64,000 nt of DNA from Candidatus Bathyarchaeia archaeon (GCA_050013255.1 JBEKFP010000003.1:192001-256000); one strand, 5' to 3'. Positions 29,368 through 49,401 are shown, counted from the first letter of the stretch. A program made the numbers and translations. Notes: a model not told the origin generated them from the letters alone.

Positions 29368-29462
29368 GCTGTACTTCCAGGCTAGAATCAGCAACCAATT
29401 TTCTGACATCGCTCCAACACGCCGTTACTGTTCAGCAGGTTTAGTCGTTTTTCGAGTGTGTG

Positions 29463-29494
29463 ATACTAGTGGTGCGACCGTCGTAATTTGAACC
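29463..29494 (+). repeat. Junction A: 14-mer ATACTAGTGGTGCG + tRNA T-loop mimic
   Basis: GAGTGTGTG|ATACTAGTGGTGCG|ACCGTCGTAA-TTTGAACC. Confidence 0.8.
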
Positions 29495-29521
29495 GTCGTT
29501 CAGGTCGTCCTTGTGTGTGTG

Positions 29522-29553
29522 GTATCAGTGGTGCGAGCACCCAAATTTGAACC
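29522..29553 (+). repeat. Junction B: 14-mer GTATCAGTGGTGCG + tRNA T-loop mimic
   Basis: GTGTGTGTG|GTATCAGTGGTGCG|AGCACCCAAA-TTTGAACC. Confidence 0.8.
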
Positions 29554-29569
29554 ACCAGACATAAGGGGG

Positions 29570-30241
29570 CTATGGGAGTGTGATGCCGAATACACCTACG
29601 GCTCCTCGTATGAGGAATGAGATGCCAATGGCTCCCATAAGTATGTCCATGACTTTTCCAGTTATTACCATGACTGATGGCTTCAGGACTTTCATGAGTC
29701 TACTGCTCAAACTGAACAGTAACCAAACGATCACGCAGTCAACCACAATCGCGACTGCCATGCTGAAATCCATCCACCCCTTCGCGGCTCCATACTGAGG
29801 ATTGTTGAGTACCATAACTGTCGCAATCGCCCCTGGTCCAGCCAATAGTGGAATAGCCAACGGGAAAACGGCTATACTGTCAGTAACGCCACTTGACAGG
29901 GTGCGCCCCCTCCTCCTGTATAGGGATTTGGCCGCGCTCTGGACTTCGGATGAGGCGACATCTTTGACCGCGAAGACGAGAATGAATACGCCTCCCGCGA
30001 TCATCACGGAATTGAGAGTGATTTGGAGGGCGCCTAGGATTGCGTCGCCCAAGTACGCGAACACCAACAGTACCGCTATGGCGACTGTAATCGTCTTCCT
30101 GGCAATCGCAGCCTTCCGTTCCCCTGTGGCCCCAGCTGTAAGCCCCTGAAAGAACGGAATAACCCCGAGTGGGTTTAGGATGACGAATAGTGTAATCAGG
30201 GATTCGGTAAGGTCCTGCAGAAAGCCGGTCGAGAATGACAA
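29570..30241 (-). CDS. MarC family membrane protein
   Basis: LF.ILNPLG, IAGG, IAVFPLAIPLLAGPGAI. Confidence 0.92.
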   Translation of the reverse strand: MSFSTGFLQDLTESLITLFVILNPLGVIPFFQGLTAGATGERKAAIARKTITVAIAVLLVFAYLGDAILGALQITLNSVMIAGGVFILVFAVKDVASSEVQSAAKSLYRRRGRTLSSGVTDSIAVFPLAIPLLAGPGAIATVMVLNNPQYGAAKGWMDFSMAVAIVVDCVIVWLLFSLSSRLMKVLKPSVMVITGKVMDILMGAIGISFLIRGAVGVFGITLP

Positions 30242-30294
30242 AACGTCAACACGCCTACCGTAATGCGCTCGGGGCTACCTAAATGTGTGTGTAG

Positions 30295-30326
30295 GTAGTG
30301 ATGGTGCGGGCGCCGTAAATTGAACC
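30295..30326 (+). repeat. Junction C: 14-mer GTAGTGATGGTGCG + tRNA T-loop mimic
   Basis: TGTGTGTGTAG|GTAGTGATGGTGCG|GGCGCCGTAA-ATTGAACC. Confidence 0.8.
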
Positions 30327-30356
30327 GTCGTTCGTCGTCAAAAAAATGTGTGTGTG

Positions 30357-30388
30357 GGTCTTATGGTGCGAGCATCGCAAATTGAACC
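30357..30388 (+). repeat. Junction D: 14-mer GGTCTTATGGTGCG + tRNA T-loop mimic
   Basis: GTGTGTGTG|GGTCTTATGGTGCG|AGCATCGCAA-ATTGAACC. Confidence 0.8.
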
Positions 30389-30446
30389 GTCGTCGTTCGT
30401 CCGTCAGGATGGAATAGTTAGAATGGCCTTCGTAAGAAGGAGTGCG

Positions 30447-30460
30447 GGTATGCTGGTGCG
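30447..30460 (+). repeat. Junction E: GGTATGCTGGTGCG (putative TSD, copy 1 of 3)
   Basis: Identical at 36065 and 47044; flanked by GAGTGCG and CGCACACACAC. Confidence 0.85.
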
Positions 30461-47043: not shown

Positions 47044-47075
47044 GGTATGCTGGTGCGGGCGAGCGGATTTGAACT
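47044..47075 (+). repeat. Junction L: GGTATGCTGGTGCG (putative TSD, copy 3 of 3) + T-loop mimic
   Basis: GGCGGCGGCGGGGGCG|GGTATGCTGGTGCG|GGCGAGCGGA-TTTGAACT. Confidence 0.85.
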
Positions 47076-47086
47076 CTCGTTTGGGG

Positions 47087-47113
47087 GAGAGCTTGGTGCG
47101 GCCGCCGGGATTC
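47087..47113 (+). repeat. Junction M: 27-bp copy of tRNA-Gly 3' end plus flank (att-like)
   Basis: GAGAGCTTGGTGCGGCCGCCGGGATTC vs GAGAGTTTGGTGCGGCCGCCGGGATTC at 49300-49326 (26/27). Confidence 0.9.
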
Positions 47114-47124
47114 AGGTCAGCCTT

Positions 47125-48066
47125 TCAGGGCTCGGGATAGGTGTATGACGGGTAGATCCTTAGCGGTGTTCCAGGTTTTATGACGGCTTGGGCTTCAGCG
47201 TTTAGCAGGTAGCGCCCAGCAGGATCAGCGCTGCCCGCCTCCGCAAAAAGCTTGACAACGAAAGGTTTCGATTCGGCCCGCCGGTAGAAAATCTGAGCCT
47301 CATTCGGGCGTGTTCTAACGTACCTCCTCCAAAGCTGCTCGATGGGCTCAGTTCGCGCAAATGACCTGTCCATGAATTCGAAGAACCTTGCTAACTCCGA
47401 TCTTCGGGGAAACCGACCGTAATGCTGCGAAAGTTCCTCATATGCTCCAAGGAAGTATTCCTGTAATGAGGCAAACCGCCGGTCCCTTAGGTACCCTTTG
47501 AAGAGCTCGATAAACTCTTGGAGCAGTCGATTTATGCGTTTATCGACTTGCCCGTGATTCGGTTGCGCTACGGGTAACTTGTCGGGCACGATTTCCCTTA
47601 CCAAACCAAGTTTTCCGTTACCGGAAATTGCTAGGCCAGCTTTGCTTACCGTTCCATGAATCTCGCGTATCGCCTCGACCATGAGATGGTTCTCATACAT
47701 CTCGATTTCGAGAGCATGATCCTGCCTGAAGATTTCCGCCATTCTTTCCCACACAACCTCGTAACGTTTTCTCCGCATATCCAAACCAATTCCGGGGCGA
47801 TCTCTCAACAGCCCCGCCTTTCGGAGGTCCGAAAGTTGCAGACTCACGGCGAACTTCGATTTACCCGTAAACGCTGATATTTCAGAAGGCGAGTTCGTAC
47901 CCTTTGCCACTGCGACGAAGAGCTCACTCAGAGCTTGAGAACGAAGCGCCTTCCGGACGCGTCTAATCTCGCCGCGCAACGGGTCGCCGGAATCAACTTT
48001 AACCTCCATTGCAACGCGCCTTCCCCACAGCTGCCGTGCAAGAACCGTTGGTTTTGTTTTTGGCAT
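47125..48066 (-). CDS. ArsR-like winged-HTH protein
   Basis: SPSEIS..TGKSKFAVS.QL..L.KAGL. Confidence 0.7.
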   Translation of the reverse strand: MPKTKPTVLARQLWGRRVAMEVKVDSGDPLRGEIRRVRKALRSQALSELFVAVAKGTNSPSEISAFTGKSKFAVSLQLSDLRKAGLLRDRPGIGLDMRRKRYEVVWERMAEIFRQDHALEIEMYENHLMVEAIREIHGTVSKAGLAISGNGKLGLVREIVPDKLPVAQPNHGQVDKRINRLLQEFIELFKGYLRDRRFASLQEYFLGAYEELSQHYGRFPRRSELARFFEFMDRSFARTEPIEQLWRRYVRTRPNEAQIFYRRAESKPFVVKLFAEAGSADPAGRYLLNAEAQAVIKPGTPLRIYPSYTYPEP

Positions 48067-48132
48067 GTGGGAAATTAACTAGCAAACGGTATAAGTAGTT
48101 AATTGACCCCTTAACTATCTCGTGATGGAAAA

Positions 48133-48693
48133 ATGGCTAACGCAGACTCGATGAAGGGGACCATCACCAAGGTCTTCCAAGTAAACGCTCCCCCGGAACG
48201 CGTTTACAGAGCGTTTACGGACAAAAAGGATATGGTGGAGTGGATGTCGGATCATTTTGAAATTGATGCCAGGAAGGGAGGAAAGTTTCAGATGGGGAAG
48301 GAATCGGACGGCTTCGTTACAACGGGGGAGTTTCTTGAAGTCGTGCCAAACCAGCTACTCACTTATACCTGGAGAATGAATGGGTACGAAAAGAACACTG
48401 GGAAGCGTATCCCGAACTGGTCCGATGAAAACCCGTCGAAGGTTACGGTGAAGTTCGAAAAAGCGGGCAGGGGTACAAGGATCACAGTTACCCACGAAGG
48501 GTTCCCAGAACGAGATGAGGAATACTGGGCGCATGAGGTGGGATGGGAGATGCTGGGTGGTGAGGTTTTGAAGTACTACCTAGAGCACTCTCAGGAGGAA
48601 TTTGAAAGATGGTGGAAAGAAAACGAAGCGTCGTGGCAGGAACGCTGGCAGAAAAAGGTAGATGCACGAGCCAAGTCATCCCCTATTGCATGA
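48133..48693 (+). CDS. SRPBCC (AHSA1-like) domain protein
   Basis: APPERVYRAFTD, G.FLEVVPN..L.YTW, T.ITVTHEG, GW. Confidence 0.88.
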   Translation: MANADSMKGTITKVFQVNAPPERVYRAFTDKKDMVEWMSDHFEIDARKGGKFQMGKESDGFVTTGEFLEVVPNQLLTYTWRMNGYEKNTGKRIPNWSDENPSKVTVKFEKAGRGTRITVTHEGFPERDEEYWAHEVGWEMLGGEVLKYYLEHSQEEFERWWKENEASWQERWQKKVDARAKSSPIA

Positions 48694-48715
48694 TGGCAAG
48701 AGGTGAGAAAAGAGA

Positions 48716-49135
48716 ATGGTGAAAGTAACTGATGAAGGACTATTTCCGGCACCACGCGAAAAAGTCTGGCGCCTTATTGAAGCCCACGGAACAGACCCAC
48801 AAGGCATACACCCCGCGATGAAATCCGCAAAGCCACTAAACAAAGAAGGCAGCATGGTGGAACAACAATGGGACATGAACGGACAGAATGTCAGAATGGT
48901 TTTGAAAGTAACTCCGGCCCCACCCGACAAGTTGACCCTGGAGTTTCTCGAAGGGCCCGTCACAGGCAAAATGGTAAACACCTACACCGAAGTGGCAGGT
49001 GGAACCAAAGTAGTCACGGAATGTGACATGAAATCACAAGTCATGGACGACAAACAAGTCGAAAGCACTGTTAGACAAATCCTCGACAACGGCTTCGCCG
49101 ACGACGTCCGCTACCTAAACACAAAAATGAAGTAG
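48716..49135 (+). CDS. SRPBCC family protein
   Basis: APREKVW, EGP..G, GGTKV. Confidence 0.75.
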   Translation: MVKVTDEGLFPAPREKVWRLIEAHGTDPQGIHPAMKSAKPLNKEGSMVEQQWDMNGQNVRMVLKVTPAPPDKLTLEFLEGPVTGKMVNTYTEVAGGTKVVTECDMKSQVMDDKQVESTVRQILDNGFADDVRYLNTKMK

Positions 49136-49306
49136 CTGAGAAAGCAGGCGTACTAGCGCCAGTTTTCTCGGCACCCAACCTTTTCTTGGCTGTAGCAATT
49201 CTTGGCTAGCAATATTGTAGCCGCCTTCAAGCTGTGGATTTGCCTCAACTGGTTTTGTCCCCAATATTCGCATTGATGAAGCGATAAGGTATCGTTGCAG
49301 AGAGTT

Positions 49307-49401
49307 TGGTGCGGCCGCCGGGATTCGGACCCGGGTCGTTGGCTTGGAAGGCCAATGGACGCGTAAACGCAATGTCCTAGACCAGGCTAGACTACGGCCG
49401 C
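49307..49401 (-). tRNA. tRNA-Gly(TCC) with 17-nt non-canonical intron (49355-49371, position ~27/28), encoded CCA
   Basis: GCGGCCG/CGGCCGC acceptor stem, TTGGC-CTTCCAA-GCCAA anticodon arm after splicing, CCGGG-TCCGAAT-CCCGG T arm; BHB motif GGAC-ATT...GTCC-ATT. Confidence 0.93.

Follow-up and report, generated by a model that had tools for sequence, protein, structure and literature searches.

Casposons are the presumed ancestors of the CRISPR (clusters of regularly interspaced short palindromic repeats) adaptation machinery. To our knowledge, a genome has few of them in the literature that we searched; they invariably come with a DNA polymerase gene and move whole. Here we describe the region between positions 29,454 and 49,313 of a 64,000-nucleotide stretch of DNA from Candidatus Bathyarchaeia archaeon (GCA_050013255.1 JBEKFP010000003.1:192001-256000; hereafter the window), which a first-pass annotation had read as an array of gene-sized cassettes built by Cas1 and anchored on a tRNA-Gly gene. 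With a probability that we put at roughly three in four, the region is a hot spot for insertions by family-2-like casposons of a polymerase-less branch specific to Bathyarchaeia, with enzyme-less units moved in trans.

The closest described systems are the family 2 casposons (AciBoo-C1; MetMaz-C1 and MetMaz1FA1A3-C2; 6OPM). They share with the locus a Cas1-type integrase, an HNH gene, terminal inverted repeats and a 14-bp duplication starting with CGCA at a tRNA or tRNA-like 3' end, preceded 8 bp upstream by the leader motif TCAAAT. Both also have tandem insertions and solo ends and live side by side with other elements that target tRNA genes. Deletion and point mutagenesis showed that the A. 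boonei casposase requires a border dinucleotide and, 8 bp upstream of the segment that becomes duplicated, the leader motif TCAAATC; a yardstick places the second cut 14 bp away, and five terminal nucleotides of the element suffice (PMC6614799). The duplications of M. mazei casposons are likewise 14 bp long and start with CGCA; these elements insert in tRNA-Leu or intergenic sites, form tandems, leave solo ends behind and occupy tRNA sites alongside elements of the tyrosine-integrase type (PMC4779613). Unlike family 2 casposons, the six elements examined here have no PolB, most units lack cas1 and carry tips of ~7-11 bp alone, the targets are mainly element-borne pseudo-tRNA pads, and junctions number dozens per genome. 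In M. mazei, artificial mini-casposons that lack both cas1 and polB transpose in vivo; they share with most of our units the placement of cargo between casposon ends and, as we infer here, movement in trans into the casposon target (PMC10359463). However, they are laboratory constructs with full terminal repeats, whereas the units described below are natural, diverse, arrayed and exchanged between lineages.

Other systems resemble the locus in part. Integron arrays have one-gene, promoter-less-looking units separated by short sites, accumulate them on a platform and vary between strains. Yet integrons rely on the IntI tyrosine recombinase, attC hairpins and a Pc promoter, whereas the locus has a Cas1-type transposase, target duplications and tips, genes in mixed orientation, no Pc promoter and many platforms per genome. 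CRISPR arrays share the duplication of a leader-adjacent target by a Cas1-family enzyme with a ruler, and the polarity towards the leader. They differ in having identical, direct repeats of 24-47 bp with short, unique spacers between them; the 14-bp 'repeat' of the locus has a variable half, its inserts are 0.05-11 kb long with defined ends, and there is no cas2 or effector. Miniature inverted-repeat transposable elements (MITEs) and insertion sequence composite transposons are also short-ended units moved in trans, or jointly between outer ends, but the units here are not multicopy, each carries unique cargo, and the transposase family and the tRNA-like target are different. Tandem casposons and solo ends (PMC4779613) and laboratory mini-casposons (PMC10359463) are already in print. 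In the literature searched, which covered subscription papers in part, we found no natural non-autonomous, MITE-like, Bathyarchaeia or PolB-less casposons; what we have not found in print are natural non-autonomous, polymerase-less casposons with portable landing pads. Such elements offer a concrete natural model of how casposase target duplication beside a leader could become a growing array. They are also candidates for a pathway, based on Cas1, by which genes are exchanged in an abundant class of uncultured archaea. That their ends are cut to a few bases is in line with the sufficiency of five terminal nucleotides.

Target duplications and leader geometry

The 14-bp sequence GGTATGCTGGTGCG occurs three times in the window (30447, 36065 and 47044), as a duplication that brackets two composites with matching outer tips. 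The second composite (36079-47043) consists of a polymerase-less casposon (CasA), a reversed inner 14-mer and a unit with a TPR gene, and both of its outer ends are the same 17-bp sequence CCGCCCCCGCCGCCGCC. Hence, the duplication brackets the CasA+TPR composite and not the 9-kb core alone. After the third copy comes GGCGAGCGGATTTGAACTCTCG, which in the sense of a tRNA reads ...GTTCAAATCCGCTCGCC|CGCACCA and corresponds to a T-loop plus acceptor 3' strand without the matching T-stem. The leader at 47058, read in the same orientation (...GAGAGTTCAAATCCGCTCGCC|CGCACCA), carries TTCAAAT 8 bp upstream of CGCACCA, the spacing mapped for the A. boonei casposase, and has no Rfam tRNA match. The features of the region are:

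28501-29462, plus strand: EamA-transporter unit (Pfam EamA), ending in a GTGTGTG tip at 29456-29462
29463-29476, plus strand: 14-mer ATACTAG-TGGTGCG, then leader-like sequence
29477-29521, plus strand: 45-bp landing-pad module, pseudo-tRNA leader AATTTGAACC plus GT tip, no cargo
29522-29535, plus strand: 14-mer GTATCAG-TGGTGCG
29536-30294: MarC unit, leader-like start, GT tip at ~30285-30292
29570-30241, minus strand: marC gene (Pfam MarC, E 1e-38)
30295-30370, plus strand: 14-mer GTAGTGA-TGGTGCG, 48-bp landing-pad module and 14-mer GGTCTTA-TGGTGCG; 62-bp tandem unit
30371-30446, plus strand: leader-like piece with a degenerate tip, GAGTGCG, at its end
30447-30460, plus strand: target duplication copy 1, GGTATGCTGGTGCG
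30461-36064: composite A, five units, 5.6 kb, CACAC/GTGTG outer tips
30461-31667: composite A unit 1, no long open reading frame
31682-32896: composite A unit 2, 285-aa unknown protein
32911-34065: composite A unit 3, 287-aa unknown protein
34080-35229: composite A unit 4, EamA
35244-36064: composite A unit 5, S-adenosylmethionine (SAM) methyltransferase
31668-31681 (reverse), 32897-32910 (reverse), 34066-34079 and 35230-35243: inner 14-mers of composite A
36065-36078, plus strand: target duplication copy 2, GGTATGCTGGTGCG
36079-45121: CasA, polymerase-less casposon, 9,043 bp
38400-38897, minus strand: HNH endonuclease gene (Pfam HNH_3, E 2e-15), a usual gene of family 2 casposons
39179-40393, plus strand: cas1/casposase gene, 404 aa (Pfam Cas_Cas1, E 1e-52)
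40395-41159, plus strand: TIR-domain (ThsB-like) cargo gene (Pfam TIR_2, E 3e-19; PADLOC ThsB-like)
45122-45135, minus strand: inner 14-mer GTATCGT-TGGTGCG between CasA and the TPR unit
45136-47043: TPR unit with a CACAC left tip and a CCGCC-type right tip
45212-46675, minus strand: TPR gene (Pfam TPR)
47044-47057, plus strand: target duplication copy 3, GGTATGCTGGTGCG, leader-proximal
47058-47086, plus strand: pseudo-tRNA leader (47058-47079) followed by a G-rich, tip-like run
47087-47115, plus strand: partial copy of the tRNA-Gly 3' end, GAGAGCT-TGGTGCGGCCGCCGGGATTC
47116-49299: separate 2.2-kb insert, helix-turn-helix (HTH) protein and two SRPBCC/AHSA1-like proteins
49307-49401, minus strand: tRNA-Gly(TCC) gene, T-loop TCCGAAT, short non-canonical insert

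The word TGGTGCG is found 19 times in the window, compared with 6.9 +/- 2.8 times in shuffled sequence (none of 100 shuffles reached 19), and 15 of the 19 words fall within 29470-49313. All the exact 14-mers listed by the first-pass annotation are present (29463, 29522, 30295, 30357, 30447, 31668r, 32897r, 34066, 35230, 36065, 45122r, 47044, 47087 and 49300). The degenerate site that it placed at 45179r is plausible: it reads CGACCGCATCAGTGATAC, follows the TPR unit's CACAC tip and has a better preserved counterpart in the paralogous unit on contig C1. A further exact TGGTGCG match (35749), inside the methyltransferase reading frame and without tips, looks like a chance occurrence. As had been noted, most 14-mers are abutted by tips: 13 of the 15 sites in the window adjoin (GT)n/(CA)n or CGGGGGCG/CCGCCCCCG runs, or variants of them, and no genuine site breaks a credible gene. 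The site at the live tRNA (49300) has no tip adjoining it. The left part (29456-30446) has four tip/14-mer/leader junctions in series; no more than 45-48 bp is enclosed in two cases, and marC in one.

Exact 14-bp duplications flank five cas1-bearing elements or composites. In addition to the CasA+TPR composite, these are a second casposon in the genome (CasB), which has GGTCTAATGGTGCG on either side and the leader after the second copy; a 7.1-kb element with CCGCC ends in the related genome G004 (GGTCAGCTGGTGCG); an 8.6-kb element with CACAC ends on contig C3 of G014 (GGTATAGTGGTGCG); and a 10-kb element, also with CACAC ends, in the more distant metagenome-assembled genome (MAG) L033 (GGTCGGCTGGTGCG). 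Within the DNA examined around cas1, no pair of 14-mers with one mismatch or less was found at six cas1 loci of relatives (L042-L045, L047 and L048) and two distant ones (L049 and L050). Genome-wide, 13 tip-bounded pairs of 14-mers matched with at most one mismatch, versus 4.7 expected when 14-mers were shuffled among sites (p ~0.005; the CasA pair, which the pattern missed, is omitted). The leader adjoins the last copy on its TGGTGCG side in all nine matched arrays of this genome and in three of three elsewhere, as the leader/duplication geometry predicts. Furthermore, TTCAAA lies at one fixed offset in 24 of 36 leader-side junctions (GGTTCAAATT-N8-CGCACCA-N7, then the tip), a layout that, judged from sequence, is the same geometry as that of published casposase targets. 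We rejected the idea that the leader pieces are true tRNA fragments: they gave no Rfam match at E 0.01 and, in the pieces inspected by eye, had no complementary T-stem.

These data bear out the earlier view of the 14-mer as a casposase target and target-site duplication. They do not agree with the serial duplication of one repeat from one leader, because the 14-mers have unlike N7 halves and occur in both orientations; matches are found around composites only. The casposase would join the 3' ends of units ending in ...GTGTG (or ...GGCGG, in the window's own casposon) to a target formed by the T-loop-like leader TTCAAAT, 8 bp and CGCACCA+N7. A second cut 14 bp from the first would then lead to the duplication of CGCACCA+N7. 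Successive insertion of the composites 30461-36064 and 36079-47043 at one target (leader 47058) would leave the three copies of GGTATGCTGGTGCG.

The tRNA-like pieces could also be the att duplicates of classical tRNA-targeting elements, produced by serial tyrosine-integrase insertion into tRNA-Gly. Such a history would suit the ~27-bp repeat of the tRNA-Gly 3' end that brackets 47116-49299 and the further element at the same tRNA in G004. However, it fits the 47.1-49.3 kb block only. The remaining leader pieces match none of the genome's tRNAs and do not pass as tRNAs themselves, casposon tips follow them at exactly 14 bp, and the arrays and their surroundings are free of integrase genes: the three PF00589 tyrosine recombinase genes of the genome are all more than ~20 kb from any array, and none was found among the window's reading frames. 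Thus, classical elements are a very improbable source of the array as a whole, and the geometry of tips and duplications rules out the att interpretation for 29.4-47.1 kb.

A casposase-type Cas1 and casposons without a polymerase

Residues 4-395 of the window's Cas1 align to residues 21-405 of the M. mazei casposase chain 6OPM, almost to the C-terminus of the latter (E 8e-77), and the best CRISPR Cas1 matched with an E of only 2e-22. The protein is thus predicted to be a family-2-type casposase, like those of A. boonei and M. mazei, a type that has an HTH domain at its C-terminus. We found no cas2 in the genome and no CRISPR-like tandem array between 27 and 50 kb of the window. In metagenomes, the Cas1 relatives of this polymerase-less branch run to hundreds: database searches returned 856 at E<=1e-3. 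The best 120 of these show 58-100% identity to the window's Cas1, and all the named ones among them are from Bathyarchaeia. The genome (2.46 Mb in three contigs) encodes one further full-length Cas1 (C1:1333438-1334640), which is 60% identical.

The first-pass annotation was right to single out a 9-kb unit with cas1. This unit, CasA (36079-45121), combines a casposase-type Cas1 and an HNH gene with imperfect terminal inverted repeats of ~75 bp, which start with CCGCCCCCGCCGCCGC and have 16 identical bp before similarity continues to ~75 bp. A TIR-domain gene and unknown genes make up the rest of its cargo. Subterminal 18-bp repeats of the ACGACGG type lie at 36117-36209. ACGACGG also precedes TTCAAAT in many landing pads, making it a candidate binding word of the casposase. 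Short repeats (ACGACGGTAGGAACGACG, 5.3 copies) are present within both inverted ends (36117-36209 and 45019-45048). Inside CasA there is also a 45-bp tandem repeat (38098-38337; 5.3 copies, 69% matches), where overlapping reading frames on both strands encode a repetitive R/E/K-rich peptide.

CasB (C1:1330273-1346555; 16.3 kb) has inverted ends of ~100 bp that are ~85% identical and start with CACACAC. It carries Cas1, AIPR (abortive infection), N6/N4 DNA methylase, DndB-like and GHKL-ATPase-like proteins, among others, a cargo that is of the defence type; no HNH gene was seen among them. Although PolB has been described as invariable in casposons (PMC6452270), Pfam searches found no PolB domain in the reading frames of CasA or CasB, and PolB is absent from the gene lists of the G004 and L033 elements. 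In total, none of the six elements examined has a family B DNA polymerase. The three PF00136 (family B polymerase) genes of the genome are all on contig C2, away from every array. The PF03175 profile had no match in the genome, but its control was silent too, so this result is uninformative.

The Cas1 proteins of the clade form two groups that are 52-62% identical to each other. The first comprises the window's Cas1 and those of G004 and G003 (64-76% identical), and the second comprises the C1 copy and those of L033, G014, G002 and G017 (64-81% identical). The tip type follows the Cas1 group in all five elements with defined ends, a small and non-independent sample: CCGCC in group 1 (n=2) and CACAC in group 2 (n=3). 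Most window cassettes have CACAC tips and the window's own casposon has CCGCC tips. This suggests that the CACAC-tipped units are substrates of the other Cas1 subclade, rather than of the Cas1 that the first-pass annotation had made their stockpiler. Their likely mover would be the contig C1 enzyme, whose own element ends in CACAC.

The arrays are confined neither to the window nor to this genome. The pattern GTGTG-N7-TGGTGCG occurs 53 times in the genome, in ~12 arrays, and 2-54 times in each of 18 further genomes of its genus. Among 12 genomes from other genera, 10 have 0-3 occurrences and the remaining two have 16 and 18; the reversed control pattern gives 0-1 per genome. An assembly artefact of a repeat-rich metagenome bin is scarcely conceivable. 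The MAG does have an estimated contamination of 8.6%, yet it is assembled in three contigs of 0.28-1.4 Mb, the repeats are merely 14-60 bp long and a like architecture recurs in independent assemblies.

Enzyme-less units and their exchange between genomes

About 100 tip-flanked junctions form ~12 clusters genome-wide. The window has about ten small gene-carrying units without an enzyme of their own in addition to the polymerase-less casposon. The picture of gene-sized units stacked in an array held, with casposon-type ends as their boundaries. Pfam supports the labels MarC, EamA (drug/metabolite transporter, DMT; two genes), SAM methyltransferase, TPR and Cas1, as well as the HNH nuclease and the TIR-domain protein, but not the 'Zn-finger' and two 'HEPN' genes named at first. 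The 285-aa and 287-aa proteins had no significant Pfam or PADLOC match, the latter having a sub-threshold match to MauJ. A second copy of the 287-aa gene (C1:720236-721093) shares the gene alone, with no tips recognised.

Units are regularly one gene long, with tips at each end and little shared sequence beyond the 7-11 bp of the tip. Most would thus be natural mini-casposons, each a gene between two short tips that is moved in trans. Twenty of 93 good tips have GTTCAA 15-35 nt inside the unit (1.9 expected) and 12 have a full TTCAAWT-N9-CGCACCA pad, so many units bring a landing site along. With about one-fifth of the tips bearing such a copy just inside, insertion would bring a new target and thereby seed nested and tandem arrays at many places.

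Comparison with related genomes shows that cassettes have been shuffled between them. Most of the window's cargo was not found in the five closest relatives. The EamA unit (28501-29462), however, is 94% identical in G014, where it keeps its tip boundary next to different neighbours and a different 14-mer. Unit 1 of composite A recurs at 94-96% identity in different surroundings in G004, G014 and G018; in G004 (94%), its tip is joined to the opposite side of a different 14-mer. The segment C1:258034-259431 is 97% identical in G018, in a different array, compared with 81% for the chromosomal flank; the tip of its neighbouring unit adjoins different 14-mers, on different sides, in this genome (G000) and G018. 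A paralogue of the TPR unit (C1:1352982-1355334; 79% identical) begins exactly at CGCACCA. In G018, which has no cas1 of the clade, the TPR homologue is a lone unit between the 14-mers GGTCTAT and GGTCTAA, one base apart, with a CCGCCCCCG tip recognised at one end only. At a real tRNA with a TTCAAAT T-loop (C1:1132371-1132501), a tip-bounded element lies 7 nt after CCA in G000 and G014; the site (C1:1132501) is empty in G018, and the distal duplicate is deleted in G000 and replaced in G014. In G004, the flank ending at window position 27766 is joined, after 73 bp, to position 47104, with the whole 19.3-kb block missing and only a decayed leader copy left.

The G018 unit and the 93-97% identity of one-gene units in other arrays bear on whether these cassettes ever moved. 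The array could consist of fossil scars, that is, host or old-element DNA lying between independent casposon scars and scrambled by deletion and inversion, with full casposons alone having moved. Methanosarcina is known to have solo ends and casposons in tandem (PMC4779613), deletions are seen beside elements, the cargo is single-copy and several site-rich relatives lack cas1, all of which would agree with such a history. However, homology between units ends at the tips, with an identity above that of the chromosomal flank, units are regularly of one-gene length and tipped at both ends, and the G018 TPR unit stands alone between nearly identical 14-mers. We therefore regard fossil scars as improbable.

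The mobile-casposon reading has to accommodate several observations that weigh against it. First, G011, G013, G016 and G018 are site-rich (21-54 sites) without an intact cas1 of the clade. The expected co-occurrence of motif and Cas1 is therefore upheld only in part: it is lineage-restricted, with full-length Cas1 of the clade in six of nine genomes with at least 30 sites and in none of the 10 other-genus genomes with 0-3 sites, but the four exceptions indicate that arrays outlast, or do not need, a resident cas1. Second, cassette cargo is nearly always single-copy in the genome, so there is no direct sign of copy-and-paste. Third, the first-pass annotation expected strain-variable boundaries to fall on the 14-mers; several unit edges do fall at tips, but the left edge of the 19.3-kb block (27767) lies at the start of an unrelated 270-bp repeat. 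Fourth, only two of the 38 nearest tip-to-tip units have matching direct 14-mers (24 have inverted ones), and the orientation of adjacent 14-mers does not differ from random. Finally, the model leaves the origin of the (CA)n tips on genes unexplained.

We rejected a simple model of one-by-one duplication for single cassettes given the two matching units in 38 and the random-like orientation, and its failure leads to the composite reading. We infer that several units move together between outer tips, landing either way round and carrying inner 14-mers along. This would account for the variety of the inner 14-mers and for their two orientations. The window's CasA+TPR composite is consistent with it, and so are composites C1:37914-42249 and C1:1324037-1330258, each of which has an exact duplication around it. 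We also rejected tips as arms of a free palindromic repeat (like repetitive extragenic palindromic elements): inner sequence and tip are joined as one to either side of different 14-mers, and cas1 elements share those tips.

The scarcity of matching duplications around single cassettes could alternatively reflect integron-like conservative exchange within the 14-mer. In this scheme, circular cassettes recombine at a composite site (GT tip plus N7 / TGGTGCG plus leader) without duplication, catalysed by Cas1 in a non-canonical mode or by another recombinase. Differing adjacent N7 halves would follow from it, the commonest site form (tip-N7-TGGTGCG-leader) resembles one composite site, and one cassette keeps its flanking 14-mer, CGCACCAAGGGTAC, in G000 and G018 with different neighbours. 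Yet other cassette ends meet different 14-mers, on either side, in different genomes, and exact 14-bp duplications surround the five cas1-bearing elements or composites. The mixed gene orientation and the lack of a tyrosine recombinase near the arrays also speak against exchange. Moreover, it conflicts with Cas1 chemistry, as enzymes of the family are known solely for staggered strand transfer with duplication (PMC6614799, PMC6977970). The odds of conservative exchange are accordingly low. Whether N7 is part of the target or of the cassette could not be read cleanly from the orthologous pad beside C1:259586, because in G014, G004 and G018 the upstream DNA is different in each and the pad is only ~70% alike.

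More ambitiously, the arrays could be a working Cas1 gene-capture platform with portable pseudo-tRNA leaders, a 14-bp site duplicated per insertion and enzyme-less units exchanged between lineages, that is, a living intermediate between casposon and CRISPR array that offers the host an integron-like reservoir of accessory and defence genes. Such a platform seems unlikely to us. Cassette genes lie on both strands, and the mixed orientation, together with the lack of a common promoter logic and of a tyrosine recombinase, does not support the integron-like stockpiling that the first-pass annotation proposed.

The tRNA-Gly gene, the 2.2-kb insert and other features

The tRNA-Gly at 49307-49401 (minus strand) is real, as had been annotated: Rfam (48 bits, E 1e-7) and ARAGORN both find a tRNA, its anticodon loop reads CT-TCC-AA by eye (Gly) and its 3' end is CGCACCA. 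An insert of ~18-20 nt separates its D-arm from the anticodon stem, where an intron would be non-canonical, and ARAGORN named no anticodon. The gene does not serve as the live anchor of the array, however, as its T-loop (TCCGAAT) lacks the TTCAAAT motif, no tip adjoins it and a 2.2-kb element lies in between. The earlier proposal of a tRNA T-arm as leader is correct insofar as a T-loop-like sequence occupies that role, but this is the pseudo-tRNA leader at 47058-47079 rather than the live tRNA.

The 2.2-kb block (47116-49299) is flanked by the ~27-bp direct repeat and has neither casposon tips nor an integrase gene. Its proteins are a 313-aa HTH protein, an AHSA1/SRPBCC protein and a 139-aa protein. 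The block is 91% identical in G004, where the array is absent, and thus represents a separate insertion outside the casposon array; more distant versions are present in G014, G013 and G016. Until this insertion took place, the tRNA would have had the leader at 47058 immediately downstream of it. A run of TTTGGGG adjoins the tRNA-derived 14-mer at 47087 and could be a decayed tip, making an original seeding at tRNA-Gly possible. At the same tRNA, G004 has a further insert of 2.7 kb in a like style.

Dispersed repeats and small insertions were found in and around the array. The ~270-bp repeat at 27767-28037 has an 89% identical copy directly beside another cassette array (C1:262259-262529) and other copies in several relatives and at C2:477538, C1:668681, C2:83355 and C2:426177. 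The left edge of the block missing from G004 may owe its rearrangement to this repeat. Further upstream, ~345 bp (26709-27053) are missing from the orthologous position of G004 and G014, between flanks of 91-94% identity, and look like a small insertion. On contig C1, G000 carries a 1.66-kb segment (1125905-1127561) that G014 lacks, and is without a 1.17-kb gene for a Thr/Asn-rich, secreted-looking protein directly after the tRNA element (C1:1133240/1133248). Lastly, a 190-bp segment (30952-31142) in the unit of composite A that is poor in reading frames has an 86% identical copy at C2:243194-243384 and no Rfam match. Copies that are 78-96% identical occur in all five close relatives searched, and the segment could be a small RNA or a mini-element.

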